Shown here in pieces: positions 6,230 to 25,855 of a DNA stretch of 32,000 bases (within the stretch, counting starts at the first letter, position 1; the number at the start of each line of letters is the position of its first letter). The notes under the pieces are model-generated. The model was not told the DNA's origin, ran no database searches, and saw only the letters and a program-made list of their open reading frames with translations. Location of the stretch: positions 510,001 to 542,000 of the forward strand of contig JBDSDX010000001.1 of assembly GCA_039920285.1 (NCBI GenBank), read 5' to 3'. This stretch comes from Candidatus Saccharimonadota bacterium (GTDB taxonomy: Bacteria > Patescibacteriota > Saccharimonadia > Saccharimonadales > Saccharimonadaceae). Made by a program: the position numbers and the translations under genes.

Positions 6230-6240
6230 TCTGTTATAAT
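6230..6240 (+). promoter_or_regulatory. extended -10 promoter TCTGTTATAAT for tig
   Basis: The TATAAT box ends 7 nt before ATG 6248. Confidence 0.55.
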
Positions 6241-8954: not shown

Positions 8955-9105
8955 AGGTACTAAGAAGTAGTGTAGCCGTGGTTACTTGTGTCTTGAATGT
9001 GGTGTGGCAGTCACGCATAAACACAAGTGGGACGACCAGCGGTTAAGGGAATCTTCGGCGCCAAGAACCCCTATAAATCTAACTATGCGAGGACAATTCA
9101 GGCCT

Positions 9106-12100
9106 ATGGCAACTACCAAACGTGCGAACGCGAAGCGTATTTTCTTTACTAAAGATGATACTGCTCTCCCTCTACCAAACTTAATTGACCACCAGCGCTC
9201 AAGCTGGCAGGAATTCGTCGAAACCGGACTCGGTGAGATCTTTGCAGAACTCAACCCGATCGACGACTACACGGGACAGAAACTCGCGCTTCGCTTCGGC
9301 CAGTACGCTTTTCATGATCCTAAAAATAGCGAACAGTTCGCTAAAGAAAACAACGTAACCTTTGATGCGCCACTTCACGCTACTGTGGAACTGACCAACA
9401 AAGTAACCGGTGAAGTAAAAGAACAAGAGATCTACTTGGGTGATTACCCATGGATGACTGACCGTGGAACCTTTATCATTAATGGTACTGAGCGTGTCGT
9501 CGTCTCTCAATTGATTCGTAGTGCTGGTGTCTTCTTTACTGCAGACCGCCTCGCAACTCGTAACAACTATGGTGCTAAATTGATCCCAGGCCGTGGTGCA
9601 TGGCTCGAATTCGAGACTGCAACAAACGGTGCTATCTATGTCAAAATCGACCGTCGTCGCAAACTGCCTGTGACAACTCTTTTCCGTGCCCTTGGATACA
9701 ACAAGACATCGGAAATCAAAGCTCTCTTCGAAGGTGTTGACACCGGTGAAGTAAAATATATCGACGCAACTCTCGAAAAAGACCCAGCAAAGGGTACGAA
9801 CGAAGCACTCATCGAAGTCTACCGCCGCCTCCGTCCAGGTGACCTCGCAACAGTCGACAACGCTCGTTCAATGATCGAACGTATGTTCTTTGACTTCAAA
9901 CGATTCGACTACAGCCGTGTTGGTCGTTACAAGCTCAACCAACGCCTCGGTATCGAAGTGCCAAACACGACTGAAAACCGTGTCTTCATGGTCAGTGACC
10001 TCGAAGCAATCGTTCGCGAAATCATTCGCTTGAACAACACCCAAGAACTTGCTGATGACATCGACGCCTTGTCAAACCGTCGCGTTAAACTTGTTGGTGA
10101 ACTCGTTGCACGTCAATTCCGTGTTGGTATGCTTCGTATGCAACGTAACGCCATGGACCGTATGTCTATGAGCGACATTGAAAACGTTTCTCCCTCACAA
10201 CTTATTAACGCTCGTCCTGTCGTGGCCGCTGTTCGTGAATTCTTCGCGAGTTCACAACTTTCACAACTTATGGACGAAACCAACCCACTGGCTGAACTCG
10301 CTCACAAGCGTCGCCTTAGCTCAATGGGTCCTGGTGGACTTTCTCGTGAACGTGCTGGATTCGACGTTCGTGACGCCCACCCAACTCACTACGGACGTCT
10401 TTGTGCCGTTGAGACACCTGAAGGTGCCAACATTGGACTGGTATTGAACCTTGCGGCCTATGCTCGTATTAACGAGTACGGTTTCATCGAAACTCCTTAC
10501 CTTAAGGTTGTAAAGGGTAAAGTTACCGAAGAAGTTGTTTACCTTGATGCTTCCGAAGAAGCGGTTGAAGTGATTGCTGATGCTGGTGCTGAACTCACTA
10601 AAGATGGTAAGTTTGCTGACGAACGTGTCAGTGCACGTAACGGACTTCTCCCTGAACAAGTTGACTCATCAGAAGTGACCTACATGGATGCTGCTCACAA
10701 GCAGATCCTTGGTTCAACTGCCGCTCTTGTGCCATTTGTTGAAAAGAACCGTGTCGACCGTTCATTGATGGCCTCATCAATGCAGAAGCAAGCTGTTCCA
10801 CTCTTGCACCCTGAAGCTCCTGTCGTGGGAACTGGTATCGAAGGCGAAATCGCTCGCAACACCAGCCAACTCGTTGAAGCTGAAGGTGCTGGTGAAGTTG
10901 TCCGTGCTGACGGTGAAGAAGTTCATGTCAAATACGCTGACGGCGTAAAGATCTACAAGCTGATTCACTTTGCGAAATCTAACGACGACCGTTCGATTAA
11001 CCAAAAAGTTCGTGTCGAACGTGGTGAAAAAGTTAAAAAGGGTGACATTCTTATCGAAGGTGCCTCAGTTGACCAAGGTGAAATTGCGCTCGGTCGCGAC
11101 CTCCTCGTTGCTTTCATGCCATGGAATGGCTACAACATGGACGACGCAATCGTTTTGAGCCAACGTCTTATTACTGATGACACACTGACAAGCGTGAACA
11201 TCAAAGACTACACTGTTGAAGTTCGTGAAACAAAGCTCGGTCCTGAAATTGTCACTCGGGACATTCCAAATGTGAGCGAAGAATCACTTCGTCACCTTGA
11301 CGAAAACGGTATCGTTACCCTTGGTTCTGAAGTGAAATCTGGCGACGTTCTCGTCGGTAAGATTACACCAAAGGGTGAACAAGAACTCAGCTCAGAAGAA
11401 CGACTTCTTCGTGCGATCTTCGGTGAAAAAGCCAAAGACGTCCGCGATACTTCACAGCGCATGAATAATGCAGGTGGCGGTAAAGTCGTCGGTATCAAGA
11501 TCTTCTCACGTGAGAATGGTCATGAACTCAAAGCTGGTGTGCTTATGCAAATCCAAATCTTCGTTGCTCAATTCCGTAAGATCTCAGTTGGTGACAAACT
11601 TGCTGGACGTCACGGAAACAAGGGTGTCGTTGCGCGTATTCTTCCAGTCGAGGACATGCCGTACATGGAAGATGGAACAGCAGTTGATGTTGTCTTGAAC
11701 CCACTTGGTGTCCCAAGTCGTATGAACATCGGACAACTGTTCGAAACTCACCTTGGAATGGCTGCTCGTGCACTTGGATACAAAGTTGCAACACCTCCAT
11801 TTAATGGTGTCACTGATGAGACTATCTCTGAAGAACTCGTGAAAGCCGGCTTTAACCGTGATGGTAAGAGTCAACTGTTTGACGGCCGTACTGGTGATGC
11901 CTTTGAAGAGCGCACAACTGTCGGTGTCATGCACATGCTGAAGCTTCACCACATGGTGAGCGACAAGATTCACGCCCGTTCTACTGGACCATACACAATG
12001 GTCACGCAGCAACCACTTGGTGGTAAAGCGCAAAACGGTGGTCAACGATTCGGTGAGATGGAAGTCTGGGCACTTGAAGCATATGGTGCTGCCTCAACAC

Positions 12101-12462
12101 TTCAGGAAATGTTGACAATTAAGTCTGACGACGTCTATGGACGTGCGAAAGCTTACGAATCAATCATTAAGAACGAGCCAATTGTTGGTCCGAAACTTCC
12201 AGAAAGCTTTAACGTTCTCGTTAAAGAACTTCAAGGTCTCGGTCTCCGTGTTGATCTTCTTGATGAATCTGAAGATGCTATTGTCGACGCTGAACAGGTA
12301 ATTGGGAGTGTCATCAATGGCGAACCAGTTCCTATGAGCGATGTGATGGAAGCTGATGAAGTAGAAGTAATTCTCGACGAAGCTGATGAACTTGGCGACC
12401 TCGATGATGGAACCACCATCCAGGATATTGATGAAGTAGAAGAAATTAAGGAGGAGGCGTAA
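9106..12462 (+). CDS. rpoB: DNA-directed RNA polymerase subunit beta
   Basis: Canonical N-terminus MATTKR..LPNLIDHQRSSW starts at ATG 9106. Conserved GRLCAVETPEGANIG, NPLGVPSRMNIGQ, GGQRFGEMEVWALEAYGA. 64-aa acidic C-terminal extension. Confidence 0.97.
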   Translation: MATTKRANAKRIFFTKDDTALPLPNLIDHQRSSWQEFVETGLGEIFAELNPIDDYTGQKLALRFGQYAFHDPKNSEQFAKENNVTFDAPLHATVELTNKVTGEVKEQEIYLGDYPWMTDRGTFIINGTERVVVSQLIRSAGVFFTADRLATRNNYGAKLIPGRGAWLEFETATNGAIYVKIDRRRKLPVTTLFRALGYNKTSEIKALFEGVDTGEVKYIDATLEKDPAKGTNEALIEVYRRLRPGDLATVDNARSMIERMFFDFKRFDYSRVGRYKLNQRLGIEVPNTTENRVFMVSDLEAIVREIIRLNNTQELADDIDALSNRRVKLVGELVARQFRVGMLRMQRNAMDRMSMSDIENVSPSQLINARPVVAAVREFFASSQLSQLMDETNPLAELAHKRRLSSMGPGGLSRERAGFDVRDAHPTHYGRLCAVETPEGANIGLVLNLAAYARINEYGFIETPYLKVVKGKVTEEVVYLDASEEAVEVIADAGAELTKDGKFADERVSARNGLLPEQVDSSEVTYMDAAHKQILGSTAALVPFVEKNRVDRSLMASSMQKQAVPLLHPEAPVVGTGIEGEIARNTSQLVEAEGAGEVVRADGEEVHVKYADGVKIYKLIHFAKSNDDRSINQKVRVERGEKVKKGDILIEGASVDQGEIALGRDLLVAFMPWNGYNMDDAIVLSQRLITDDTLTSVNIKDYTVEVRETKLGPEIVTRDIPNVSEESLRHLDENGIVTLGSEVKSGDVLVGKITPKGEQELSSEERLLRAIFGEKAKDVRDTSQRMNNAGGGKVVGIKIFSRENGHELKAGVLMQIQIFVAQFRKISVGDKLAGRHGNKGVVARILPVEDMPYMEDGTAVDVVLNPLGVPSRMNIGQLFETHLGMAARALGYKVATPPFNGVTDETISEELVKAGFNRDGKSQLFDGRTGDAFEERTTVGVMHMLKLHHMVSDKIHARSTGPYTMVTQQPLGGKAQNGGQRFGEMEVWALEAYGAASTLQEMLTIKSDDVYGRAKAYESIIKNEPIVGPKLPESFNVLVKELQGLGLRVDLLDESEDAIVDAEQVIGSVINGEPVPMSDVMEADEVEVILDEADELGDLDDGTTIQDIDEVEEIKEEA

Positions 12463-12463
12463 T

Positions 12464-15400
12464 ATGTCGCGCGTTGTAGCAAACAATGGTATTGCCGACT
12501 TTGACGCGATTCGTCTGTCAGTCGCAAGCTCTGATGACATCATGAAATGGAGTCACGGAGAAGTTACAAAACCTGAAACGATTAATTATCGTACCCAGAA
12601 ACCTGAGCGTGATGGTCTGTTCTGTGAACGAATTTTCGGTCCAGTCAAAGACATCAACCCACACGATAACAAGCTCAAGGGAGTTCGCTCTCGTGAAGCT
12701 GCTGTCGATAAGAATGGTGACCTCGTTACCAAGTCTATCGTTCGTCGTGAACGCATGGGTCACATTCAACTTGCAAGTCCTGTTGCGCACATCTGGTTTA
12801 TGCGTGGGACACCATCAGCAATGTCACTATTGCTTGGTATCACTGTTCGTAACCTCGAACGTATCGCGTACTTTGCAACCTACGTTGTCTTGAAATCTGA
12901 CGAAGAAAGCCGTGACAAGTTCTTGGCTGACCTCGAAGCAGAGACCGAAGCTGGTCGTGCTGCAATCAAGATGCGTTACGAAAAAGAAGCTGAAGCAGAA
13001 ACTGCTGATGTTAAATCACTTGCTGAATCAATGACCCGTGAAACTGAAGAGTTGAATGAAAGCTACTTGGTCAAGAAAGCTCAACTGGATTCACTGGTAA
13101 AGAACTCACTCATGAGTGAAGTTGATTACCGAAACATGCCAGAAGAGTACCAAGACTTGATCGAAGTTGGTATGGGTGGACTTGCACTGAAAGCACTTCT
13201 TGATGGTATTAACTTGAGCGAACTTATCGCCCAACTGACTGAAGAAGTCGCTGGTGCGAAGGGTCAACGTGAAAAGAAACTACTCAAGCGCCTGAAGGTA
13301 CTTGAAGGTATGCAATCTGCCGGTATCAAGCCTGCGAGTTTGACGCTGACTGTTCTTCCTGTCATTCCACCGGACCTTCGTCCAATGGTGCAATTGACTG
13401 GTGGCCGTTTTGCAACCTCAGACCTAAACGACCTTTACCGTCGTGTCATCAACCGTAACAACCGTCTCAAGAAGTTGATCGAACTCAATGCGCCTGAAGT
13501 CATTCGCCGCAACGAAATGCGTATGCTTCAAGAAGCTGTTGATGCATTGATCGACAACTCAGCTGCTCGTGGTGGCCGTGCGGTTAACGCAACAGGTGGC
13601 CGTCGCCGTCTGAAGTCTATCTCTGACATGCTCAAGGGTAAACAGGGTCGTTTCCGCCAAAACCTTCTTGGTAAGCGTGTTGACTACTCTGGACGTTCAG
13701 TTATTGTGGTTGGCCCTAAGCTTAAGATTTCAGAATGTGGTCTGCCAAAGCAGATGGCACTCGAACTCTTTAAGCCGTTTGTTATTCACTGGTTGATTGC
13801 TGGTGAGTACGCTCACAACATTCGTTCTGCAACTCGTTTGATCGAAGCTGGCGAAGCAGTTGTATGGGATGCTCTCGACTCTGTTATTGAAGGTAAGTAC
13901 GTTCTTTTGAACCGTGCACCATCACTTCACCGTCTTTCAATTCAGGCTTTCATGCCTAAATTGGTTGAAGGTAAAGCAATTCAGCTTCACCCACTTGTCG
14001 CAAACGGTTTCAACGCCGACTACGACGGTGACCAGATGGCAGTTCACTTGCCACTTTCAAAGCAAGCACAACAAGAAGCACGCGAGCTCATGAGCGCAAC
14101 TGCTAACCTGTTGAAGCCTGCCGATGGTGCGCCTGTACTCTCTATTAGCCAGGACGTCGTATTGGGTAACTACTACCTCACATACGCAAAACCAAGTGCA
14201 CAAGTTGACACGATCAAATCGTACAGCTCTGTCTACGAAGCTGAAATGGCATATGAGAACAAGGTAATTCAACTCCAAACGCCAATTCGTGTTTTTGCAC
14301 GTGGCGAAATCCGTTCAACAACACTCGGTCGCGTTTTCTTCAACGAAATCCTACCGGCTGACTTCCCCTACGACAACAACGTACAAAATAAGAAGCAACT
14401 CAAGAAAGTCTTGAACCAAATCTTCGAAAAGTATGGTGCTGAAGGGACTGCTCAGACAGCTGACCGCATCAAGGGACTTGCGTTCCGTTTTGCGACTGTC
14501 TCTGCTGTATCAACAGGTAAAGATGACTACGTCGAATTCGAAGAGACGAAGGAATTCATCGCAGAGGGTGACGCAAAGTCAGCTCTCATTAGCGAACAAT
14601 TCAACCAAGGTCTCATCACCGAAGAAGAACGATATAACCTTACCGTTTCAACCTGGCGTGCAGTGGTGCGTCGTGTTGGTGAATTCTTGGCTGAAAAGCT
14701 CAAGGACATGGATACCAGTGTCTCCGTCATGGTGAACTCTGGTGCTCGTGGTGACATCTCAAACGTTCAGCTTGCAAGCGCTATGATCGGTATCATGGTT
14801 GACGCAACGAACCGTGAGATCGAGCTTCCTATCCGAAGTAACTACAAGCACGGTCTGTCTTCACTTGAGCAATTCGTGGCCACCCGTGGTTCACGTAAGG
14901 GTCTGATTGACACCGCTCTTAAGACTGCTGACTCAGGGTATTTGACTCGTCGTCTCGTTGACGTCTCACAAGATGTCTTCACCGTTGAAGACACCCCTGG
15001 TGATGACGAAGGATTCTCAATCTACCGTGCTGAAACTGAAGAGACAATGATTGACTTCGGTAACCGTCTTTACGGACGATTTGCTGCAGAAGATGTTGCT
15101 GGTCACGTTAACGCTGGTGAGTTGATTAATCGTGAGACTGCAAAGGCGATCGAAGCTGATTCAGAAGTCACGGAAGTTAAAATCCGTTCAGTCCTTTCAA
15201 CCAAGAACCTCCGTGGTGTTCCTCAATCAAGCTATGGTATCGATATGTCGACCAATATGCTTGTTGCGAAAGCACAACCAGTTGGTGTCATCGCTGCTCA
15301 GTCTGTCGGTGAGCCTGGTACCCAGTTGACATTGAAGACCTTCCACGCAAGTGGTGTGGCCGAAAGTGACATCACCCAGGGTCTGCCTCGTGTTGAAGAG

Positions 15401-16303
15401 TTGTTCGAAGCACGTTCTCCAAAGGGACAAGCGTTCGTTACTGAAGTAACCGGACTCGTCGAACAGTGGGAAGATGGCAAGAAGTATATCGTTCAAGTGA
15501 CCCCAGAAGCTGGACACATTGAAACGATTGCTCTCGAAGGCCGAACTGCATCTGTAAAGAATGGTGCTAACGTCAAGGTCGGAGATGTTCTCGCCAGTGG
15601 TGAGAGTGAATCGAAGCCTTTGATCGCTCCATTCGATGGTATCGTTGAAGTAACTCCTGAACACTTAGTCCTTGCGGCAAACGCAAGCTCACCAGTCCGT
15701 TACGAAATCCCGGGTAACTACCAACTCACCGTTAACTCTGGTGACACGGTGCAAGCCGGTGATCGATTGACTGGCGGATCACTCAACCTACACGATTTGA
15801 TGCGCCTCAAGGGCATCGAAGCAACACAGCGTTACATTATCAACGCCGTGCTCCGTATCTACGCCGCACAGGGTCAAGACGTTGCTGACAAGCACCTCGA
15901 GATCATCGTTCGACAAATGTTTAGCCGTGTCCAAGTTGAAGATCCAGGTGATAGCGCCTTTGTGACTGGCGACATCGTTTCAAAAGCCTCTGTTATGGAA
16001 GCAATTGACGTGTTGGCCGCTGAGAAGAAAGAGACGATCGCGTTTACGCAGCTCCTTCTTGGAATCACTAAGGTCTCAATCTGGTCAGACAGCTTCCTAT
16101 CAGCCGCATCGTTCCAAGATACCACTCGTGTCCTGATCAACGCTGCAGTGAGTGGTCGTATCGACCGCCTACACGGCTTGAAGGAAAACGTGATCATCGG
16201 TCGTAAGATCCCTGTTGGTACAGGTGTCACGAGTGCAACTGCGCTCGACACTACTGACGAGGTGACTGCCGAGATCGCTGAAGACCTCGAACTCGCTGCT
16301 TAA
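12464..16303 (+). CDS. rpoC: DNA-directed RNA polymerase subunit beta-prime
   Basis: 1279 aa. AGGAGGAGG SD in the rpoB tail. Catalytic NADYDGDQMAVH, RFATSDLNDLYRRVINRNNRL, SGYLTRRLVDV, GEPGTQLTLKTFH. Confidence 0.97.
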   Translation: MSRVVANNGIADFDAIRLSVASSDDIMKWSHGEVTKPETINYRTQKPERDGLFCERIFGPVKDINPHDNKLKGVRSREAAVDKNGDLVTKSIVRRERMGHIQLASPVAHIWFMRGTPSAMSLLLGITVRNLERIAYFATYVVLKSDEESRDKFLADLEAETEAGRAAIKMRYEKEAEAETADVKSLAESMTRETEELNESYLVKKAQLDSLVKNSLMSEVDYRNMPEEYQDLIEVGMGGLALKALLDGINLSELIAQLTEEVAGAKGQREKKLLKRLKVLEGMQSAGIKPASLTLTVLPVIPPDLRPMVQLTGGRFATSDLNDLYRRVINRNNRLKKLIELNAPEVIRRNEMRMLQEAVDALIDNSAARGGRAVNATGGRRRLKSISDMLKGKQGRFRQNLLGKRVDYSGRSVIVVGPKLKISECGLPKQMALELFKPFVIHWLIAGEYAHNIRSATRLIEAGEAVVWDALDSVIEGKYVLLNRAPSLHRLSIQAFMPKLVEGKAIQLHPLVANGFNADYDGDQMAVHLPLSKQAQQEARELMSATANLLKPADGAPVLSISQDVVLGNYYLTYAKPSAQVDTIKSYSSVYEAEMAYENKVIQLQTPIRVFARGEIRSTTLGRVFFNEILPADFPYDNNVQNKKQLKKVLNQIFEKYGAEGTAQTADRIKGLAFRFATVSAVSTGKDDYVEFEETKEFIAEGDAKSALISEQFNQGLITEEERYNLTVSTWRAVVRRVGEFLAEKLKDMDTSVSVMVNSGARGDISNVQLASAMIGIMVDATNREIELPIRSNYKHGLSSLEQFVATRGSRKGLIDTALKTADSGYLTRRLVDVSQDVFTVEDTPGDDEGFSIYRAETEETMIDFGNRLYGRFAAEDVAGHVNAGELINRETAKAIEADSEVTEVKIRSVLSTKNLRGVPQSSYGIDMSTNMLVAKAQPVGVIAAQSVGEPGTQLTLKTFHASGVAESDITQGLPRVEELFEARSPKGQAFVTEVTGLVEQWEDGKKYIVQVTPEAGHIETIALEGRTASVKNGANVKVGDVLASGESESKPLIAPFDGIVEVTPEHLVLAANASSPVRYEIPGNYQLTVNSGDTVQAGDRLTGGSLNLHDLMRLKGIEATQRYIINAVLRIYAAQGQDVADKHLEIIVRQMFSRVQVEDPGDSAFVTGDIVSKASVMEAIDVLAAEKKETIAFTQLLLGITKVSIWSDSFLSAASFQDTTRVLINAAVSGRIDRLHGLKENVIIGRKIPVGTGVTSATALDTTDEVTAEIAEDLELAA

Positions 16304-16390: not shown

Positions 16391-16398
16391 GGTTGACT

Positions 16399-17082
16399 AT
16401 GCAAGCTGGTGAAAAACTAAAAGAATTCGTGAGAGAATTCGATCCCTTTGATGAGAGACAGACTCCAACTGACGATCAACTCATCGATATCATTGAACTC
16501 TTCCTTGAGCTAAACAAAGGATTACTCTTGAGGTTCAGCTCGGATGTTCGCATGATGCCTGTATCAGATGAGCACGGCACTGCAACAGCGTTCGAAGTTT
16601 CACTCAAAGTACCCGCACGTGATGGGTCATATCTTCATGTTGTAGTGTTCGGCCACAATAGTGACGATAGCTTGGTTGATACAAATATTTCTGTCATCGA
16701 ACACCTACCTGGCGGCAATTATCAAACCGGACATCTCTACTCATTTTCATACGGAAATGTTGTCCGTTCCGATTTGGGTCTCGATCAAACGGACGACCCT
16801 GACGAGCAAAGGACTCACTTTAGCCTGTTTACTCTTCATGAGTCTCGAGACTTTCTTCGAGAACTCGAACAGAGTGAAGACCCGGAAGAAGTGAGAGTTG
16901 CATTAGAAACGAGAGCACAGCTCGACGATGACGAGAAAAACCTTGATCTTGCAGAACAGATGGGATACAACGTTCAGCCTGTTGATAAAGAAGAAATCGA
17001 AAAATTAGTACTGTTGTTATTTGATGCTGAATCTTTCCCACCCTCGATGTTTCCACATGCAGGTAATGACAGCATTTACTAA
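16399..17082 (+). CDS. hypothetical acidic protein (227 aa)
   Basis: Clean ORF between rpoC and rpsL; ATG 16399 is preferred over TTG 16393. D/E-rich; no recognised motif. Confidence 0.6.
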   Translation: MQAGEKLKEFVREFDPFDERQTPTDDQLIDIIELFLELNKGLLLRFSSDVRMMPVSDEHGTATAFEVSLKVPARDGSYLHVVVFGHNSDDSLVDTNISVIEHLPGGNYQTGHLYSFSYGNVVRSDLGLDQTDDPDEQRTHFSLFTLHESRDFLRELEQSEDPEEVRVALETRAQLDDDEKNLDLAEQMGYNVQPVDKEEIEKLVLLLFDAESFPPSMFPHAGNDSIY

Positions 17083-17103: not shown

Positions 17104-17252
17104 ACAAGGTGAGTTTCCGCTTATCATTACGAGTTAATGTACAAGATTCGTAATACGAGATAAGCACCGTTTTCAAAGGATGCTGACCTGAGAGAACACC
17201 CACATAGCGATTTCTTGCTATGCATCAAATTAATGAGGAAGTTTATTCAAAC

Positions 17253-17666
17253 ATGCCAACAATCAACCAGTTAGTGCGCAAGCCACGAAAGACCGCTCAC
17301 CAGAAGAGTAAATCTCCTGCGTTGGGTCGTATTCACAATGCGCTCAAGACTCGTTACTACGAACAAAACTCTCCACTAAAACGTGGCGTGTGTATCAAAG
17401 TAACGACCAAGACCCCTAAAAAGCCTAACTCTGCTCTCCGTAAGGTTGCCCGTGTTCGTTTGACCAATGGTCAAGAAGTCTGGGCATACATCGGTGGAGA
17501 AGGTCACAACCTCCAAGAGCACGCCGTTGTGCTTGTTCGTGGTGGTCGTGTTCCAGACCTTCCAGGTGTCCGTTACCACATCGTTCGTGGTGCACTCGAC
17601 CTTCAAGGTGTTGCCAACCGTAAGCAAGGCCGTTCTAAATACGGTGCAAAGAAGGATACTAAGTAA
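17253..17666 (+). CDS. rpsL: 30S ribosomal protein S12
   Basis: [14 protein letters not shown]-terminus, GAGGAAG SD 7 nt upstream, [16 protein letters not shown] motif. Confidence 0.97.
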
Positions 17667-18145
17667 TGCCACGAAAAGTTACTGCGAGCCTTCAGCGCCG
17701 CCTCAACCCAGACCGCCGCTACCAAAGCGTTATGGTCCAACGCCTTATCAACAAATCAATGCTTGACGGCAAAAAGCTCCTTGCAGAGCGTGCTGTCTAT
17801 ACTGCACTTGAAACTGCTGCCAAGAAACTTGATAGCGAAAACCCTCTTGAAGTGTTCGAACGAGCACTCAAGAACATTTCACCAAACTTCGAGGTTAAAT
17901 CTCGTCGTGTCGGTGGTGCAAACTACCAAATCCCATTCCCAGTTGCTGGTCACCGCCAGTTGCACTATGCGTTTAGCTGGCTTGTCCAAGCATCGCGTGC
18001 ACGTAAGGGTATTCCATACTCTCAACGTTTGGCTATGGAAATCGTTGACGCGTACAACGAAACAGGAGCTGCCTTCAAGAAAAAAGAAGACACCCACAAA
18101 ATGGCCGAAGCCAACCGTGCTTTTGCCCACTTCGCTCGCGGTTAA
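17666..18145 (+). CDS. rpsG: 30S ribosomal protein S7
   Basis: TAATG overlap with rpsL. VKSRRVGGANYQIP and AEANRAFAHFR signature. Confidence 0.97.
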   Translation: MPRKVTASLQRRLNPDRRYQSVMVQRLINKSMLDGKKLLAERAVYTALETAAKKLDSENPLEVFERALKNISPNFEVKSRRVGGANYQIPFPVAGHRQLHYAFSWLVQASRARKGIPYSQRLAMEIVDAYNETGAAFKKKEDTHKMAEANRAFAHFARG

Positions 18146-18158
18146 TACCATACAGAAC

Positions 18159-18192
18159 AAAAATATTCGTCCTCTCTGGGCGGATATTTTTT
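18159..18192 (+). terminator. rho-independent terminator after rpsG
   Basis: AAAATATTCGTCC-tctct-GGGCGGATATTTT followed by TT (two G-U pairs). Confidence 0.7.
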
Positions 18193-18202
18193 ATGAAAAC
18201 TA

Positions 18203-18232
18203 TTTACAAACCCCATTCCGCTCATGTATAAC
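18203..18232 (+). promoter_or_regulatory. candidate promoter TTTACA-18-TATAAC
   Basis: Shares ATTTACAAACC with the -35 region of the rpsJ promoter at 26486-26496. Confidence 0.4.
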
Positions 18233-18316
18233 AAAGATAAATGGGAGCAAAAACAAACATGACTGACATTTTCGATTTCTGCTTTAACGTTGGCCGAAAG
18301 GTCATCGGGGACTAGT

Positions 18317-19057
18317 ATGTCTGGAGAATGGATTGAACCGAACTTTGCCGGACCAACACCATTTCTCCCCCCTGAAGCAGTGAGACTTCACGATCTTCGT
18401 AAGGACGGACGCAAGCCAACGCCTGTTGATACGCGTACTAAGCTCGTTGATAGGCGAGCACTTATGATTATGGCGAGGGAGAGCGTTGTTCCTGGCTACG
18501 ACTGGCGCGCACCTGAGGTAAAGAAAAAGACCTCCAACCACCATCTTCACTGGCCTCACTTCCAAGATGCCAATAGCTTTCGTAATTCAGGGTCACGTAG
18601 AACAAACATCGCACCGATTGCACACAATTGGATTCACGAGTTGACAGTACCACCAGATGCGGTTGGGGAAGATGTCGAACATGATTATACGGAGGCGCAG
18701 GAGTATGCGATTGAACTAAGAACAATTGCCAACCATCCATTATTCCTGGGTCGTGAAACAGTACGAATTCATAAAGAAGTCTCTGCGGCTTTTCAAAACG
18801 AATACTTCGTTCTCTCTAAACAAGAAGTACGTCAAGATATAAAGCTCGATTTGGCATTTGCGTTCGATAGTTTTGCTGCTGTATTTGAAAGAGCACGTCA
18901 GGCCCCTATAGAATTCCAAGTTATTGATTATGAGGCAAGGCAACTTCGGGGAGTCCATGACATGATGAGTATTGCTCGTGAAATTGGCGCGACAATTCGA
19001 CGCGAGGCAGAATTGGACCAAAAGATTCTCGATGGAGCTGTCGATCTTGCTGCATAA
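18317..19057 (+). CDS. hypothetical protein with HH-x20-N-x5-HxxxH signature (possible His-Me finger / HNH-like nuclease)
   Basis: ATG 18317 with a GGGGA SD is preferred over TTG 18290. NHHLHWP...RRTNIAPIAHNWIHE is encoded at 18536-18640. Helical C-terminal half. Confidence 0.6.
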   Translation: MSGEWIEPNFAGPTPFLPPEAVRLHDLRKDGRKPTPVDTRTKLVDRRALMIMARESVVPGYDWRAPEVKKKTSNHHLHWPHFQDANSFRNSGSRRTNIAPIAHNWIHELTVPPDAVGEDVEHDYTEAQEYAIELRTIANHPLFLGRETVRIHKEVSAAFQNEYFVLSKQEVRQDIKLDLAFAFDSFAAVFERARQAPIEFQVIDYEARQLRGVHDMMSIAREIGATIRREAELDQKILDGAVDLAA

Positions 19058-19059
19058 GG

Positions 19060-19068
19060 TGTTATAAT
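19060..19068 (+). promoter_or_regulatory. extended -10 promoter TGTTATAAT
   Basis: Starts 3 nt after the stop of the 18317-19057 gene and lies 31 nt before ATG 19100. Confidence 0.45.
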
Positions 19069-19099
19069 TCCTAAATACTAATTTTCCCGAGAGACTGTC

Positions 19100-20119
19100 A
19101 TGGAATTCACCAAAGTAGACCGACTGTTCACCCCACTTCGCCCCGAAATAGCTGCTAAAATCCAAGCGATATCTGAAAAGCTGACGGACATCTATGATGA
19201 TGACCAAGCAAAGACTCTTCTTGTTGAACTGAATCATGAACTTACTAAACATAAACTAGTGGGTGATACAGTCCAAGTGAGTTCTGCCGATATGGTGTGG
19301 GGTAGTTATGGACTTGATGGAAACTTTATTCCGGTTCTAGATGTGGCGTTACTAGAGAAGCATATTATAGCGGGGACATTCTTGGGTGTCGGCGAACTCG
19401 ATATTGACGGCCTCCGGACGGTGGTCTACAACCTACAGGTAGAAATCGACGATGAAGCAACGAGTTCTTTTGTCATCAGTGCGCCAATTGAAACATCTCA
19501 TCTGGCAGTTGAGGTTGAGATACCGGCTTCAGTGCAGACAGATAACGAGCTTGCTCAACACTTTCAGGTATTGGCGGAAATTGAAGATCCTGCGTTCAGA
19601 GAACTCATAAAAGCGTTTATGGATGTACTTGATGATAACGACATGCTTAATGCATCAATGTTGAGACATCTCGGTGTTCTCGTAACTGAGATGCTTGCCC
19701 ATAGCGAAGTACAAGACAATGATCGACGCCAAGACGCGATAAGTAATATTCTTGCTGAAATACTGAATGATGACGGAATATATACCATTGTTGGACAGGA
19801 ATTTATGATTGATAGACAGTCTCCCAAAGGAACATTGTTTCTTAAGTCGTTCGAAGCGACAGGTGGTGTAGCAGGTGTTTCGCTTGTCAATGATTATACG
19901 ACCAACGAGCTAAGTATTGATACTTTCAAATCGACCTTTCAACCGGCAGCTATATTCCAGGACGGAAGTAATCGACGCTACACTATTCCATTAAAGTATA
20001 TTACGACGTTTGATATGCTTGAAGGTCCTGATATGTCACCTGATCCCGATGGCTGTCGGGCAAGTATCGGTCGATTCCTTATGCAAAACCCTCAAGTATT
20101 GAAAGCAATGAAATGGTAG
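19100..20119 (+). CDS. hypothetical acidic protein (339 aa)
   Basis: Clean ORF, GAGAGA SD-like sequence upstream. 7-nt overlap (ATGGTAG) with the next ORF. Confidence 0.65.
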   Translation: MEFTKVDRLFTPLRPEIAAKIQAISEKLTDIYDDDQAKTLLVELNHELTKHKLVGDTVQVSSADMVWGSYGLDGNFIPVLDVALLEKHIIAGTFLGVGELDIDGLRTVVYNLQVEIDDEATSSFVISAPIETSHLAVEVEIPASVQTDNELAQHFQVLAEIEDPAFRELIKAFMDVLDDNDMLNASMLRHLGVLVTEMLAHSEVQDNDRRQDAISNILAEILNDDGIYTIVGQEFMIDRQSPKGTLFLKSFEATGGVAGVSLVNDYTTNELSIDTFKSTFQPAAIFQDGSNRRYTIPLKYITTFDMLEGPDMSPDPDGCRASIGRFLMQNPQVLKAMKW

Positions 20120-21195
20120 ACTCTGATTCATTCCCTCCAACTCCTGAAAAAGGTCAACCGGTCGAACTCCAAGCCGCATTCACCTCAGAAAGAGAGTTTG
20201 AAGACTACTTTAAGACAGTTCAGTATCGCATCGCTCAGGTGAGAGGTACGGTTTTTACCGATGAAATCGAAGCTGAAAGAGCACTCGACGAACACGTCGA
20301 TTCGATCAATGATGAAATATTTGATCATCCTGAATGGTTTAAAATCCCTGTAGTTATAACTGGTGAGGGTATATCTGAACCAAACGCTGATTCAAGTATC
20401 TCGAATCTTACTGATGGCCGTAGGGCAATTGTGATAGCCTTTGACCCTGAACAAGGCTACGCTGCAACCCCGAGCTTCGAAACAAAAACAGGATATATAG
20501 AAGGGGTGTACGGCCAAGTCATTAGTCTTTTTGATGACAATGAGATTCCGACAGGTCAGCATGCGGTGAATGTCCGCTATATCGTCCGAGCAAAGTATCC
20601 AGAAACGATAGATATAACATTGGGTGGTCCAAATATCGCTGCTCTTCGAGTTGAGGCGTATCCTGCTTATTTTGCTCACATCGATATGGTTGAAATCGAA
20701 ACTGAAGCACTGAATAAACAGAGACAAGCTGAGGTATTGACGAATGACATGGTCCTGAGGGGTATTACGGGAAGTGTCTTTCAGCATAAACTTACAAAAG
20801 TTGAAGAGTCATTGAATAACGACACTCCATTTCAATTTATGACGTTTGAAAATATCGAAGATTTCCGTTCAGTTGGGACACTTGGCGCTGTGATTGCAAG
20901 AAAAGGTCCAGACTATGCTCGAACAGTGAAGGAAGCAATGCTAAACGCACTTCGCGTTGGACGTCCACTTAAAGTAGATGGAACATGTCTCCTTCCAAGA
21001 ATTGGTGACGATCCTATTTTAGTGACGGCAGAGTTAAAAGGCGAGATATACGACATTATGCTTCCTGAGTCGCCAGAAGATACAATCGCACCAACACTCG
21101 TCTTGAGCTGCCTTATAGAAACAGGAGAAGGCCAGCCGCCAAAAGAGGTATTGTACTTCTTTGATTTCGAGCAGATTCACGCTCTGAAGTTCTAG
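20113..21195 (+). CDS. hypothetical protein (360 aa)
   Basis: Clean ORF translationally coupled to 19100-20119. Stop lies 15 nt before the fusA promoter motif. Confidence 0.65.
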   Translation: MVDSDSFPPTPEKGQPVELQAAFTSEREFEDYFKTVQYRIAQVRGTVFTDEIEAERALDEHVDSINDEIFDHPEWFKIPVVITGEGISEPNADSSISNLTDGRRAIVIAFDPEQGYAATPSFETKTGYIEGVYGQVISLFDDNEIPTGQHAVNVRYIVRAKYPETIDITLGGPNIAALRVEAYPAYFAHIDMVEIETEALNKQRQAEVLTNDMVLRGITGSVFQHKLTKVEESLNNDTPFQFMTFENIEDFRSVGTLGAVIARKGPDYARTVKEAMLNALRVGRPLKVDGTCLLPRIGDDPILVTAELKGEIYDIMLPESPEDTIAPTLVLSCLIETGEGQPPKEVLYFFDFEQIHALKF

Positions 21196-21210
21196 CAAAT
21201 CACCCCACAA

Positions 21211-21221
21211 TCTGTTATAAT
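21211..21221 (+). promoter_or_regulatory. extended -10 promoter TCTGTTATAAT for fusA
   Basis: Exact copy of the motif seen before tig and tRNA-Leu(UAG). 60-nt leader. Confidence 0.55.
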
Positions 21222-21281
21222 CTACTTAAAGCGCTATTTTTTATGGCAAAAAATAATTAGAGAAAGAGAAGACCACTTACT

Positions 21282-23381
21282 ATGGCCCAGAAAACTGTCG
21301 AACTTAAGGACTTCCGCAACGTCGGAATTATTGCCCACATTGACGCCGGTAAAACGACGACTACTGAGGGTATCTTGTACCGTACGGGTATCAACCACAA
21401 AATTGGTGTGGTGAAAGGGACCGGCTCAGACGACGGAACAACCACTGACTGGATGGCTCAAGAAAAAGAACGCGGTATCACGATTACTTCTGCAGCTGTC
21501 ACCGCACAGTGGAAGGGTCATACCATCAACATTATCGACACCCCTGGTCACATTGACTTTACGGTTGAAGTTGAGCGTTCACTTCGTGTACTCGACGGTG
21601 CAGTAACAATCTTTGACGGGAAGATGGGCGTTGAAGCACAATCTGAAACTGTCTGGCGCCAAGCCAACAAGTATGGCGTGCCTCGTATCTGTTTCATCAA
21701 CAAGATCAACCAAATTGGTGGTGACTTCTACAAATCTCTCGACTCTATTCACCTTCGTCTTTCAAAGCATGCACTTCCGATTCACCTTCCAATTGGATTT
21801 GAAAAAGAAATTAATGGACTTGTCGACCTTGTCGATATGAAAGCATACACCTACGAAGACTACAAAGACCACGAACTTGTTGTCGGTGAGATTCCTGCTG
21901 ACATGCTTGAGAAAGCTAAAAATGCTCGTAGCCTTTTGGTTGAAGCAGCCGTTGAAGCTGAAGATGAGCTTTTCGAACGTTTTCTTAACGAAGGCGAAGA
22001 ATCAATTTCTGTTGAAGACTTGAAGCGTGGACTTCGCAAGCGTGTTCTTGCTGGTGATTTCTATCTTGTCACAGGTGGTGATGGACGTGGTGTGATTGTA
22101 GAGAAGGTCCTTGACCTTATTAACGACTACCTCCCATCTCCTCTTGATGTTGGTGCTGTTCAGGCAACGAACCCTAAGACTGGTGAAGTTGTTGAGCGCA
22201 AGCCATCAGATGATGAACCACTTTCTGCACTTGCATTTAAGATTGCTACTGACCCATTTGTGGGACGTTTGATCTTCGTCCGTGTCTATAGCGGTAAACT
22301 TACCGCTGGAAGCTATGTTTTGAACACCACAACTGGTAATAAAGAACGTATCGGCCGTGTCGTTCGTATGCACGCAGACAAGCGTGAAGACATTGAAATG
22401 ATTGGTGCAGGTGACATTGCTGCTGTTGTTGGACTTAAAGATACCTTTACTGGTCACACACTCGCTGATCCAGCTCACCCTGTACTACTTGAATCAATCG
22501 AATTTCCAGATCCTCCAGTTTCGATTGCTGTTGAGCCTAAAACCAAGGCCGATCAAGAAAAAATGGGTGTTGCCTTGCAGCGACTCGCAGAAGAAGACCC
22601 GACATTCCGTATTCACACAGATGATGAAACCGGACAAACGATCATGTCAGGTATGGGTGAACTTCACCTTGAAATTCTTGTCGACCGTATGAAACGTGAA
22701 TTCAACGTTGAAGCAAACGTCGGTGAACCACAAGTAGCCTTCCGTGAAGCCATTCGTGGAACTGTCGAAGCACAAGGTAAGCACGCCAAGCAATCTGGTG
22801 GACGTGGTCAATACGGTGATGTTTGGATTCGTTTCGAGCCGACAGAATCAGGTATTGGTTTCGAATTCGTCGATGCTGTAAAGGGTGGCGTGGTTCCAAA
22901 GGAATACATCAAACCTGTTGAGAAGGGTATTCGTGAAACACTTGAAGGCGGTGTCATCGCCGGCTATCCAATGATTGGTGTCAAAGCCACTCTTTACGAT
23001 GGTAGTTACCACGATGTGGACTCAAGCGAACTTGCCTTTAACCTTGCCGGAGTCATTGCTGTAAAAGAAGGTATTCCAAAGGCGAAACCCGTTATTCTTG
23101 AACCTATCATGAAAGTTGAAGTATCAACTCCTGAAGAGTTTATGGGTGATATCATCGGTGACCTTAACGGTCGCCGTGGACGTATCGACGCAATGGAAGA
23201 TATCCCAGGCGGTGCTAAACTGATCCGTGCCTTTGTCCCTCTTTCGAACCTCTTTGGATACACGAACGATATTCGTTCGATGAGCCAAGGACGTGCAGCA
23301 TCAACAATGGAGGTCGCTCAATATGAGGACGTACCACCAAATGTTCAAGCTGAGATCATTGCCAAGCGAACCAACGGCTAG
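21282..23381 (+). CDS. fusA: elongation factor G
   Basis: 699 aa. G1 AHIDAGKTT, DTPGHIDF, NKIN, and domain IV/V motifs. Confidence 0.97.
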   Translation: MAQKTVELKDFRNVGIIAHIDAGKTTTTEGILYRTGINHKIGVVKGTGSDDGTTTDWMAQEKERGITITSAAVTAQWKGHTINIIDTPGHIDFTVEVERSLRVLDGAVTIFDGKMGVEAQSETVWRQANKYGVPRICFINKINQIGGDFYKSLDSIHLRLSKHALPIHLPIGFEKEINGLVDLVDMKAYTYEDYKDHELVVGEIPADMLEKAKNARSLLVEAAVEAEDELFERFLNEGEESISVEDLKRGLRKRVLAGDFYLVTGGDGRGVIVEKVLDLINDYLPSPLDVGAVQATNPKTGEVVERKPSDDEPLSALAFKIATDPFVGRLIFVRVYSGKLTAGSYVLNTTTGNKERIGRVVRMHADKREDIEMIGAGDIAAVVGLKDTFTGHTLADPAHPVLLESIEFPDPPVSIAVEPKTKADQEKMGVALQRLAEEDPTFRIHTDDETGQTIMSGMGELHLEILVDRMKREFNVEANVGEPQVAFREAIRGTVEAQGKHAKQSGGRGQYGDVWIRFEPTESGIGFEFVDAVKGGVVPKEYIKPVEKGIRETLEGGVIAGYPMIGVKATLYDGSYHDVDSSELAFNLAGVIAVKEGIPKAKPVILEPIMKVEVSTPEEFMGDIIGDLNGRRGRIDAMEDIPGGAKLIRAFVPLSNLFGYTNDIRSMSQGRAASTMEVAQYEDVPPNVQAEIIAKRTNG

Positions 23382-23390: not shown

Positions 23391-23420
23391 CCGAGGCATC
23401 AGTGCCTCGGTTTTTGTTTA
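23391..23420 (+). terminator. rho-independent terminator after fusA
   Basis: CCGAGGCA-tcag-TGCCTCGG followed by TTTTTGTTT. Confidence 0.8.
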
Positions 23421-23443
23421 AGAGCAATATAATCTGCGTTTTC

Positions 23444-23449
23444 TACAAT
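23444..23449 (+). promoter_or_regulatory. -10 box TACAAT (leaderless geometry)
   Basis: The box ends 6 nt before ATG 23456. Confidence 0.4.
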
Positions 23450-23455
23450 ATAGGT

Positions 23456-24097
23456 ATGAAAGCGATGAGTTATCTGAGGCCACGAGAAAAGTTGCAACAA
23501 AAAGGCGCAACTGTACTTACGAACGCTGAATTACTCCAGGTGATGATAGGGAGCGGCAATGCGCAGGCAAGCGTCAGCCGTATAGCGAAGCGTTCTATGA
23601 AGCAGTTATTGCGATATGGCAATGAGATTACGTATGATCAGTTGCACGAAGTAGCCGGGTTGGGTCCAGCTCGTGCCTGTCAGATACTAGCGGGTTTTGA
23701 GTTAGCAAGTCGCTATCCGGTTCGTCGGCAACAAATCGTGATTGATACGAGAGAAAAGGTACTCGCGTTAGTGGCGGATATCCGTAGTGCAACATTAGAC
23801 AGGTTGGATTACATTACGATTGACGGTGCAAAACGACTGATCGCAAAGAGGTCAGTAGCAATTGTAGAAACAGCACATCCTTCGACCATGCTGCGACAGA
23901 TATTTTCTGACGTCGTTACCGATAAAGCAGTGAATCTTTCGGTTGTGATCGGCTCATCAGATCGAGAACTTGAACCCTCTATGTTTGATTTAAGTCTTGG
24001 TCACGACTTAAAGATAATGGCTCAGTTGTTCAATGTCGGTATTCAGGACTACGTAATCATTAACAATAGTGGTCATAGAACCTTAGAGCTATCATGA
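23456..24097 (+). CDS. RadC-like protein with degenerate JAB/MPN (JAMM) active site
   Basis: N-terminal RadC pattern LTNAELLQVMIGSG and HhH EVAGLGPARACQILAGFEL. In the C-terminal JAB region the canonical HNHPSG is IGSSDR, PRE is LRQ and DH is DY. Confidence 0.7.
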   Translation: MKAMSYLRPREKLQQKGATVLTNAELLQVMIGSGNAQASVSRIAKRSMKQLLRYGNEITYDQLHEVAGLGPARACQILAGFELASRYPVRRQQIVIDTREKVLALVADIRSATLDRLDYITIDGAKRLIAKRSVAIVETAHPSTMLRQIFSDVVTDKAVNLSVVIGSSDRELEPSMFDLSLGHDLKIMAQLFNVGIQDYVIINNSGHRTLELS

Positions 24098-24597
24098 CAG
24101 AGTGTATTGAGGAGCTTGTCTATAGTTGGTACGAACGGTCACAGATTGACTACAGTGACCTATACGCTCGACTGTATATTTCGTATAATGCATGGTTTCG
24201 TAAAGTTACTCGAACGAGCAATGATAGTCAGGCTTTAGAACTGCTCAAGCGGCGCTTCATCATCTGGGATGATTATATACATAACCGGACAATGCGAGAT
24301 CTAACAGAGGTGATATCACGTATTTGCCGCCACACTGAAACAAATGTGAAAGATACAAGCGATTGGAGAGGACTCATCTCATTTTGGTATCAGGTACGCT
24401 GTGATCTATTTCACGGCACTATAAAGCCAGATAACGAAATTATTCGACTCGCGTATGAATCATTGGTTATATTTATGGATGAAATCGTTTCACGCATGCA
24501 TCAGTCATTTCCGTCTGGATACTTTTTCGCCCACGATCTATGGAGTGTCGATATGATGCGTGTTTTACCGAGTGAAACGCTTTACATAGCGACCTAA
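24094..24597 (+). CDS. hypothetical protein with Rx4H motif (HEPN-like, possible RNase)
   Basis: ATGA overlap with the RadC-like gene. [11 protein letters not shown] (R102-H107, nt 24397-24414). Helical. Stop lies 2 nt before the tuf promoter motif. Confidence 0.6.
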
Positions 24598-24609: not shown

Positions 24610-24673
24610 CACACCTATACGTCGTGAGGTGGGTTTATCCTCATGCGAAATAATTAATGGAGAAACTAATTCA

Positions 24674-25855
24674 ATGGCAGATTTCGATCGAACCAAACCT
24701 CACGTTAACGTTGGTACAATGGGCCACGTTGACCACGGAAAAACTACTCTAACTGCAGCAATTACAGCTGTTCTCGCGAAGCGACTTCCTAGCGATGTCA
24801 ACAAAAAAGTTGACTACGCAATGATCGACAACGCACCTGAAGAGCGCGCACGTGGTATCACGATCGCTACCTCTCACCAGGAATATGAATCAGAAAACCG
24901 TCACTACGCACACGTCGACATGCCAGGACACGCTGACTATGTTAAAAACATGATCACCGGTGCTGCGCAAATTGATGGAGCAATCCTTGTGGTTGCTGCA
25001 AACGATGGTCCTTTGCCACAAACTCGTGAGCACGTTCTTCTTGCTCACCAAGTCGGTGTGCCTAAGATTCTTGTTTTCCTAAACAAGATGGACCTTGCAG
25101 ATCCTGAACTTGTTGAACTCGTTGAAATGGACATTCGTGAACTGCTCGCTAAGAACGGTTATGACGAAGATGCTCCTATTATCAAGGGCTCAGCAACGAA
25201 GGCACTTGAAGGTGATGAAGCCTCTGAAGACGCTATTATGGAACTGGTTTCTGCGCTTGATACGTACTTCCCAGAACCTACTCGCGACCTCGACAAGCCA
25301 TTCCTTATGCCAGTTGAAGACGTCTTCTCAATTAAGGGACGTGGAACTGTTGCAACAGGACGTATCGAAACTGGTGTTATCAACATCAACGACCCCGTTG
25401 AAATCGTTGGTATCAAAGCGACTCAAACTTCTACCGTTACTGGTATCGAAGCCTTCAAGAAGAACCTCGACCGTGGACAAGCTGGTGACAACGCCGGACT
25501 TCTCCTCCGTGGTATCGAACGCGAAGACATCGAACGTGGTCAGGTTATCGTGAAACCTGGTTCACTAACTCCTCACACTGAATTCGAAGCTGAAGTCTAC
25601 ATCCTCAAGAAAGAGGAAGGTGGTCGTCACACTCCATTCAGCAAGGGTTACAAACCTCAGTTTTACTTCCGTACTACTGATGTAACCGGTGAAGTTGAAC
25701 TGCCAGCTGACAAGGAACTTGTGATCCCTGGCGACACAGTCACTTTCATCGTGAAGTTGCTTGCACCTATCGCTATGGAGCAAGGTTTGAACTTTGCTAT
25801 CCGTGAAGGTGGCAAAACTGTTGGTGCCGGAGTGGTTACCAAAGTTGTTAAATAA
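24674..25855 (+). CDS. tuf: elongation factor Tu
   Basis: [26 protein letters not shown]-terminus at ATG 24674, DMPGH, NKMD, SALKALEG-like, GGRHTPF. Confidence 0.97.

Follow-up and report, generated by a model that had tools for sequence, protein, structure and literature searches.

Free-standing HNH homing endonucleases are known from phages, as in the T4 mob genes and I-HmuI-like enzymes. Among bacterial genes, erm and cat, tnaC, and secM are controlled by leader peptides or upstream open reading frames (uORFs), and leaderless mRNAs are also known; Escherichia coli RecN, on the other hand, ends in -LAA, an ssrA-like degron (ClpX C-motif 1). Most Saccharibacteria and other Patescibacteria are epibionts that have not been cultured, and the genes specific to their lineages are for the most part unexplained. 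Here, we analyzed a stretch of 32,000 nucleotides (nt) from contig JBDSDX010000001.1, hereafter the window, which belongs to a metagenome-assembled genome of Candidatus Saccharimonadales (TM7/Patescibacteria). Our subject is gene A, found with genes B and C in the slot between rpsG and fusA. Gene A has a histidine pattern that recalls the HNH enzymes, lies behind a short conserved upstream reading frame, and ends in -LAA, and comparison with related loci, given by handles of the form L001, indicates that its versions are exchanged between lineages inside conserved flanks.

The A family and its candidate metal site

An original prediction had taken A, B, and C as a three-gene cassette headed by a predicted colicin-type nuclease. 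The positions and lengths that it gave for the three open reading frames (ORFs), and their site between rpsG and fusA, were confirmed. The features of the slot are the following, with protein lengths in amino acids (aa):

17666-18145, + strand: rpsG
18159-18195, + strand: terminator-like hairpin and U-run, directly after the rpsG stop codon
18203-18232, + strand: promoter-like element of the A module
18241-18315, + strand: mini-ORF of 24 codons
18317-19057, + strand: gene A, 246 aa
19060-19068, + strand: extended -10 element TGTTATAAT, for B-C
19100-20119, + strand: gene B, 339 aa
20113-21195, + strand: gene C, 360 aa
21213-21221, + strand: extended -10 element TGTTATAAT of fusA, identical to the copy at 19060-19068; downstream edge of the variable slot
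21282-23381, + strand: fusA

The alignment of homologues favored the ATG at 18317 over a TTG at 18290 as the start of A, and the product was 100% identical to NCBI protein ABIP50_02745. As previously claimed, the protein lacks cysteine and contains the peptide SNHHLHWPHFQDANSFRNSGSRRTNIAPIAHNWIHE with the order HH...N...HxxxH; the loose pattern HH.{10,25}N.{4,12}H...H was generated in only 37 of 20000 shuffles of A, and the conservation given below speaks more strongly against chance. A word-indexed search retrieved nine close homologues, all Saccharimonadales-like, and a profile search of 1.84 billion representatives extended the family to 156 clusters with E < 1e-3, mostly of 220-270 aa. Members with a readable taxon were all Saccharibacteria, save one labelled Parcubacteria, and no account of the family was found in the literature searched on Saccharibacteria. 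Judged by these sequence searches, A is a copy of an undescribed family restricted to Saccharibacteria.

Conservation was calculated from 139-140 family members. The residues H75, H76, and H107 were conserved in about 99% of them, and H103 in 81%, with Glu in several of the members otherwise. Moreover, W63, Y84, F88, R89, and P116 were conserved in more than 90% (R89 in 91%), and the family consensus was HH[LF]xWP...Y...FR[NED]L...K...PRxF[HE]NWxHxxTxPPxxP. The predicted catalytic set HH/N/H stood therefore only in part: HH and HxxxH are the most conserved residues of the family, but the Asn, N97, is variable (N, D, T, K, or S) already among the nine close homologues. Another Asn, N90, is invariant only among the close homologues, and in the family at large this position has N, E, or D. 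The exchange of His for Glu at position 103 would make chemical sense for a metal ligand. The C-terminal half was poorly conserved, and most family members are mildly acidic, with an isoelectric point (pI) of about 6. Close pairs indicated purifying selection on A (84% aa identity, nonsynonymous divergence dN of 0.13, synonymous divergence dS saturated); the dN/dS ratio was rejected as a test of positive selection because of the saturated dS.

Next, the structure of A was modelled with AlphaFold2 from 139 sequences, and the model was read at the secondary-structure level. It had a predicted local distance difference test score (pLDDT) of 93 and a predicted template modelling score (pTM) of 0.87; an earlier AlphaFold run with nine sequences gave a pLDDT below 50 in the motif region and was unusable. 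The elements of the model, by residue of A, are the following:

73-76: strand, ending in H75 H76
86-89: short helix, containing F88 and R89
95-98: strand
100-109: helix, with H103 and H107 one turn apart
118-156, 161-195, and 213-238: long helices forming a three-helix bundle, followed by an unstructured tail

The helical nature of the C-terminal half, already proposed, was thus seen in the AlphaFold models. In the predicted N-terminal alpha/beta domain of about 115 aa, H75 H76...R89...H103xxxH107 would lie on a beta-beta-alpha element, and at this level of reading the model has the strand, strand, helix order of a beta-beta-alpha-metal finger. The layout therefore fits the colicin-type element that had been proposed, but sequence, profile, and Foldseek searches gave no link to HNH or His-Me proteins, and several results weigh against such an assignment. 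When the full-length model was searched by Foldseek against PDB and BFVD, the matches were all of the helical-bundle kind and no better than noise (best E 0.3-0.6), and PDB sequence and profile searches with full-length A and with the N-domain gave no HNH/His-Me match. When the N-domain profile was aligned by hhalign to the colicin E9 DNase, whose sequence was verified against PDB 1bxi, the probability was 0.1, i.e., no match. None of the 139 family members had a Pfam (0/139), NCBIfam, or PDB sequence match to an HNH/His-Me family, and neither Pfam nor NCBIfam gave any match at all. In addition, no conserved residue of A corresponds to the canonical HNH Asn, and a pI of about 6 in most members is unusual for a DNA-binding nuclease. 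Because Foldseek, the PDB profiles, and hhalign failed to confirm the fold, we grade a His-Me-finger-like metal site in A as likely rather than established.

The matches that PDB profile searches did return, with the profiles of A, its N-domain, B, and C, were coiled-coil designs and a chance match to a heptosyltransferase, and these were discarded. A had no PADLOC, PHROG, or PDB sequence match; no signal peptide, secretion domain, or trafficking domain was visible in its sequence, and Pfam recognized no DNA-binding domain in A or the 139 family members. On the basis of the model and the conserved residues, A is probably a metal-dependent nuclease, and if the His-Me assignment holds, the family would form a new branch, unusual in architecture, of a nuclease superfamily that is already known.

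The control module and the exchange of A between lineages

The hairpin found directly after rpsG has a 14-bp stem, a folding free energy (dG) of -16.6 kcal/mol, and a z of -4.7, and none of 200 shuffles was as stable (0/200). Hairpins with a U-run, different in sequence, were present at the same place in L001, L002, L009, L018, and L015 (z -4.1 to -6.8). With so strong a terminator-like structure after rpsG, the A cassette is probably not cotranscribed with the S12-S7 message. The promoter-like element that follows is composed of TTTACA (18203-18208), an 18-nt spacer, and TG plus TATAAC (18225-18232), i.e., TTTACA-N18-TGTATAAC. Its position and sequence were kept across loci whose A proteins are 25-45% identical, and it also precedes the copies at the unrelated loci L011, L012, and L017; we infer that it acts as a promoter.

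The mini-ORF, absent from the original prediction as was the rpsG terminator hairpin, encodes MGAKTNMTDIFDFCFNVGRKVIGD and a stop. Its ATG lies 8 nt after the -10 hexamer, which suggests a leaderless or nearly leaderless transcript, and its TAG stop lies 1 nt before the ATG of A (TAG-T-ATG). Mini-ORFs of the MGxKTN type, with 11-24 codons and a stop 1-2 nt before A, were found in the window, L001, L002, L004, L018, L020, L022, L023, L024, and L025, and this spacing suggests translational coupling. Variant starts were MRVKTN in L014 and MKIKTN in L011; L013, L014, and L015 have more divergent variants, and L016 lacks a mini-ORF of the MGxKTN type. The non-str loci, i.e., those with A-family copies outside rpsG-fusA (L008, L011, L012, and L017), also have mini-ORFs, in L008 as a looser variant. 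In L012 and L017, strong terminator hairpins directly follow A, so that the complete unit is promoter, mini-ORF, A, and terminator. The constant unit is the mini-ORF plus A, and not A plus B plus C. Rfam gave no match for the A leader; on the window it matched only two tRNAs.

It was also observed that the 24-codon mini-ORFs of the window, L001, L002, and L022 keep an aromatic middle (FDFCF, FQFVF, LQFVF, and LHLCF, respectively) despite nucleotide divergence. This hints at a constraint at the peptide level and a possible nascent-chain effect.

Downstream of A, the internal promoter TGTTATAAT that had been proposed before B was found at 19060-19068 and is kept in L001 and L002. The extended -10 motif TGNTATAAT occurs five times in the window versus 0.7 expected (7-fold enriched), at the following positions:

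1428-1436, - strand
3142-3150, + strand
6232-6240, + strand
19060-19068, + strand
21213-21221, + strand

It precedes both tRNA genes (1336-1417, minus; 3178-3261, plus), B, and fusA. The remaining copy, at 6232, falls shortly after the TTG (6212) listed as the start of a 446-aa ORF, suggesting that the true start codon of this ORF is further downstream. Before fusA, seven other loci have an extended -10 match, TGNTANAAT, which is exactly TGNTATAAT in six of the seven. Since promoter elements lie upstream of each, A, B-C, and fusA would be separately promoted. As had been stated, the hairpin scan found no terminator-like structure between A and fusA, and read-through from A into B-C is therefore possible.

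The C-terminal end of A is a further feature of the module. The last residue is Ala in 107 of the 140 family members, and the last two are -AA in 82 and -VA in 17, with variable residues before them. The A protein of the window ends in -LAA, on a tail that is unstructured and outside the last helix in the AlphaFold2 model. A general tendency of the proteins of this genome to end in -AA was rejected, as only A-family proteins and RpoC had this end among the 188 long ORFs of all fetched loci. Southlakia, a Saccharibacterium, encodes ClpP, a Clp ATPase, and SmpB (PMC10633639 Table S1). It is a reasonable inference that the A tail is an ssrA-like degron. Since RpoC also ends in -LAA, -AA may be no strong degron here, and this counts against that reading of the tail. 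The RpoC end is a conserved -(E/A)LAA in the window (16292-16303, -ELAA) and in L001, L002, L016, L018, L023, L025, L026, and L028.

The exchange of A was best seen when L004 and L018 were compared. Their DNA is 85% identical from the 3' end of rpsG to about 18 nt before the ATG of A and shows no similarity across the A ORF, where the proteins have 24% aa identity. At the first base of the following gene, similarity returns, and the DNA is 80% identical from there on, fusA included. The partner gene product is 64-68% identical between these two loci. In a neighbor-joining tree, the L004 A grouped with the window clade and the L018 A with L013 and L016, and this A tree conflicts with the flanking genes. 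Judged by the flanks, L001, L004, and L018 are equidistant from the window (EF-G 94%, RadC 52-56%), whereas the identity of A to that of the window was 70% for L001, 43% for L004, and undetectable by tblastn for L018. The purifying selection on A indicates that functional alleles, and not decaying copies, are exchanged as units. Collectively, these comparisons indicate that A versions are exchanged between lineages inside conserved flanks.

The edges of the slot were also clear on the window. Its DNA similarity to all related loci starts in rpsL/rpsG and resumes at 21208-21229 (about 21209), which corresponds to the fusA promoter; in L009 and L018 it is unbroken to about 18261, and L004 and L005 have a separate match at 18220-18260. 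A phage origin of A was rejected, since the scans of 2.9 million viral contigs in IMG/VR gave no relatives. The single viral match, L019 4072-4326, was a false positive, antisense to a phage large-terminase gene and with no ORF. Both this control module and the slot for allele swapping appear to be undescribed.

Partner genes and the wider neighborhood

The loci with an A-family gene between rpsG and fusA are the window, L001, L002, L004-L007, L009, L013-L016, L018, L020-L028, and L029-L032. L021 and L027 share their contigs with L006 and L007, the L025 contig stops inside A before fusA, and the L032 contig stops before the upstream rpsG. A was present and intact in all of the at least 20 environmental Saccharimonadia loci sampled. 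It is not universal at this site, because in the cultured Southlakia epibionticum the S7 and EF-G genes are adjacent, with a 466-bp gap and no A there (PMC10633639 Table S1). The contents of the slot are the following:

Window, L001, L002, L029, and L031: A, B, and C
L004 and L018: A and a 217/222-aa gene
L009: A, a 319-aa gene, and a 219-aa gene
L015: A, a 337-aa gene, and about 3 kb more
L020: A of the L018 type (81%) and a 319-like gene
L022: A and a second A-family gene
L023, L026, and L028: a divergent A, a 319-like gene, and a B-like gene
L016: A alone

The tandem A-family genes of L022 (reverse-complemented) lie at about 519-1106 and 1262-1600, after the rpsG leader, and the second is truncated by the contig end. 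L014 has, in this lineage only, an extra 91-aa ORF (4574-4849) with a CxxC pair (...SPACFSCG...) between rpsG and the A promoter/mini-ORF.

The overlap of B and C by 7 nt (ATGGTAG) and their acidity, both noted before, were verified: the pI is 4.4 for B and 4.5 for C, with 16-17% Asp plus Glu, and all partner proteins examined were acidic. B had only five homologues in a search of 5.8 billion proteins, with 57% identity to the L001 protein and 25% to that of L002, and a distant B-like gene (27% over 337 aa) occurs in another gene combination in L023, L026, and L028. For C, even a profile query retrieved only four homologues, and the identity to those of L001 and L002 was 32-34%. Neither protein had a Pfam, NCBIfam, PADLOC, PHROG, or PDB match, and hhalign among the partner families (B, C, 319/337-aa, and 217/219-aa) gave no convincing remote homology; the candidate pair B and C, with a P of 0.003 and a probability of 11%, was rejected on this ground. 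The trio is confined to one genus-level clade (the window, L001, L002, L029, and L031), L018 and L020 have the same A type with a different partner, and the partner families (B, C, 319/337-aa, and 217/219/222-aa) assort independently of A type. B and C are clade-limited, optional accessory genes, i.e., lineage-specific passengers.

At three of the four non-str copies, ABC-transporter genes (MacB/FtsX or ABC-2 type) were observed 0-3 kb away (L008 3784-5915, L012 7752-9922, and L017 8044-10028). This could be shared synteny or chance, and a functional link to A was discarded as too inconsistent for use.

The other genes of the neighborhood are the following:

8986-12462, + strand: rpoB
12464-16303, + strand: rpoC
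16393-17082, + strand: acidic ORF
17220-17666, + strand: rpsL
23402-24097, + strand: radC-like gene
24094-24597, + strand: ORF
24629-25855, + strand: tuf

Pfam, PADLOC, PHROGs, and NCBIfam returned nothing useful for A, B, C, and the neighbors, among which only RadC and EF-Tu were matched. The ORF between rpoC and rpsL encodes a very acidic protein of 229 aa (pI 4.3, 21% Asp plus Glu) with no family match, and is kept (about 40%) in L001 and L002 only. In L009, L023, L026, and L028, it is replaced by an opposite-strand ORF of about 334 aa, whose counterpart by position and size is Southlakia SEML1_0489. With the rpoC-rpsL gap, this conserved neighborhood has a second variable slot. Between fusA and tuf (23402-24597), the RadC-like gene (UPF0758 plus JAB) overlaps an ORF of 167 aa with no family match. 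This pair is kept (39-56% aa) in L001, L004, L009, L014, and L018; in L002, which lacks it, tuf directly follows fusA.

Explanations weighed and comparison with known systems

The best explanation as a whole, which falls somewhat short of being probable in its entirety, is that A is a separately controlled, exchanged metal-dependent nuclease with optional B and C genes. A self-contained module of promoter, mini-ORF (11-24 codons), and A would lie behind the rpsG terminator. The protein would be a metal-dependent nuclease with HH at the end of strand 1, an Arg in the loop, and (H/E)xxxH on the helix. Its amount may be held low and conditional through mini-ORF coupling and proteolysis of the exposed -AA tail, and it may act in genetic conflict or in DNA or RNA processing. 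The A allele and the genes up to the fusA promoter would be swapped and shuffled among lineages, with B and C, expressed from their own promoter, as optional accessory or modulator proteins rather than obligate immunity proteins. A bolder version, which we consider doubtful, is that the promoter, leaderless mini-ORF, and degron-tailed His-metal nuclease constitute a new, self-contained, Saccharibacteria-specific conflict or sensing module. Translation of the mini-ORF would gate a short-lived nuclease, and diverged alleles would be maintained and exchanged in a fixed slot, like pherotype or immunity polymorphisms, with acidic accessory genes riding behind.

If A is not a nuclease, it could be a regulatory or housekeeping protein with a structural His site for metal, e.g., linked to translation or stress, whose place beside S12, S7, and EF-G would reflect a function connected with translation. 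The rpsG-fusA position, kept in at least 15 distinct loci with A proteins of 25-70% identity, agrees with this, as do the purifying selection, the pI of about 6, the lack of a nuclease family match, and a mini-ORF control that could sense translation status. We nevertheless regard it as unlikely: transcription of A is set apart by the rpsG terminator on one side and by the separate fusA promoter on the other, the same module is found at unrelated loci, and the gene is absent from the site in Southlakia epibionticum (PMC10633639 Table S1). Moreover, the in-situ swap of alleles that are 24% identical is atypical for a housekeeping factor, and the exchange of His for Glu at 103, with an invariant His and Arg nearby, looks catalytic or metal-binding, and not purely structural. 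The original prediction had seen a resemblance to toxin/immunity or defense modules, with A as a colicin-like DNase toxin and B and/or C as acidic immunity or partner proteins of a three-gene toxin/immunity or anti-phage cassette. Indeed, the conserved HH...HxxxH lies on a predicted beta-beta-alpha element, the B and C proteins are acidic, fast-evolving, and translationally overlapped, the locus is hypervariable with allele replacement as in conflict loci, and the A-B-C trio occurs in five genomes or contigs. The cassette itself did not hold, however, since the trio belongs to one clade only, L016 has A without partners, and in L012 and L017 A forms a single-gene unit with its terminator. Such units without partners, and the assortment of partner families independently of A type, weaken this reading, and so does the pair L004 and L018, where a shared partner (64-68% aa) beside a diverged A (24%) is the opposite of what is expected from a cognate toxin and immunity protein. 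In addition, B-C has its own conserved promoter, neither PADLOC nor PHROGs matched A, B, or C, no secretion or trafficking domain or signal peptide was visible, and B and C are far larger than the known DNase immunity proteins, whose size is well below 339 or 360 aa. The toxin/immunity reading is therefore quite improbable.

The sharp boundaries of the swapped single ORF, with conserved flanks on either side, would also be expected if A were a free-standing HNH-type homing endonuclease or its domesticated descendant, which would spread by cleaving alleles in which it is absent or different and by being copied in during repair. In line with this, A has an HNH-like motif, its two neighbors are among the most conserved genes of bacteria, it has copies at other loci, and it is missing from this site in Southlakia, and Saccharibacteria are naturally competent (PMC10633639). 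The intact A of every environmental Saccharimonadia locus sampled, its purifying selection, and its host-like conserved promoter, mini-ORF, and C-terminal tail nevertheless make homing highly improbable, and so do the acidic pI, the missing recognizable DNA-binding domain, and the lack of a relative among 2.9 million viral contigs. As for the mini-ORF peptide, it might itself be a substrate or partner of A, either a precursor of the kind of ribosomally synthesized and post-translationally modified peptides (RiPPs) processed by a His-metal enzyme, or a micropeptide antitoxin. It always accompanies A, other loci included, and has features at the peptide level: it starts with MGxKTN, ends in VIGD, LGD, or KND, and in the window clade has the aromatic core FxFxF. 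Some changes are synonymous, e.g., the Val codon is GTC, GTG, or GTA in the window, L001, and L002. On the other hand, its length varies from 8 to 24 codons with an unconserved middle, L016 lacks this type of mini-ORF, and nucleotide-level constraint can explain the conserved ends, because these overlap the likely transcription start and the ribosome-binding region of A. We give this idea hardly any weight.

With A as an exchanged, separately controlled nuclease again as the preferred explanation, the locus has several implications. A defines a phylum-restricted family with a probable catalytic site, and its module is a compact and unusual form of control, in which the slot is insulated by a terminator, the coupled mini-ORF is probably leaderless, and the protein tail is ssrA-like. 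There is clear evidence of whole-allele swapping between lineages within one of the most conserved bacterial gene neighborhoods. If A is truly a nuclease, it would be a candidate for self/non-self discrimination, defense, or nucleic-acid scavenging in organisms that depend on host nucleotides. The conserved flanks, with the leader motif, offer a handle for surveying A allele diversity by polymerase chain reaction or in metagenomes, and at least one Saccharibacterium is genetically tractable (PMC10633639).

When compared with known systems, the slot shares with the phage HNH homing endonucleases, as generally known, a small gene between highly conserved genes and the replacement of a whole ORF with sharp edges. 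Unlike them, A has no viral relatives and no DNA-binding module; it is near-universal, intact, and under purifying selection in its clade, with a regulatory module of host type. Polymorphic toxin/immunity loci and defense islands are likewise hypervariable, bounded by conserved DNA, and subject to modular shuffling of orphan genes that evolve fast, and they also have a conserved catalytic core beside a variable remainder, as predicted for A, with the tandem A copies of L022 as a further likeness. The A slot differs from them in the lack of a trafficking domain, fixed pairing, mobile-element genes, and PADLOC matches, and in its partner-less units. The short conserved ORF directly upstream and the stop-start coupling are as in the erm/cat, tnaC, and secM leaders, and the -10 element 8 nt before the AUG resembles that of leaderless mRNAs, if the start is leaderless; however, no known arrest motif or alternative hairpins were detected in the A module, and its target is nuclease-like rather than a resistance or biosynthetic gene. 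Like the RecN type of degron protein, most A members end in xAA or xVA on a C-terminal tail that is exposed, whereas on the side of the host the Southlakia annotation lacks ClpX and has only ClpP and a ClpC-like ATPase, and RpoC has the same ending.

The colicin E9 and E7 HNH DNases (PDB entries such as 1bxi and 1emv) resemble A in the order HH, loop, and HxxxH and in the similar spacing, with H102 H103...H127xxxH131 in E9 and H75 H76...H103xxxH107 in A. In both, a strand ends in HH and the next helix carries HxxxH, there are no Cys zinc ligands, and a Pro follows soon after HH, as predicted for A. A differs from these enzymes in having no detectable sequence or profile similarity to them and no conserved Asn, and in being cytoplasmic; translocation and receptor domains are lacking, as is a small cognate immunity gene. 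In the model, the inter-strand loop of A is also longer and includes a short helix, and there are an additional subdomain on the N-terminal side and a three-helix bundle on the C-terminal side.

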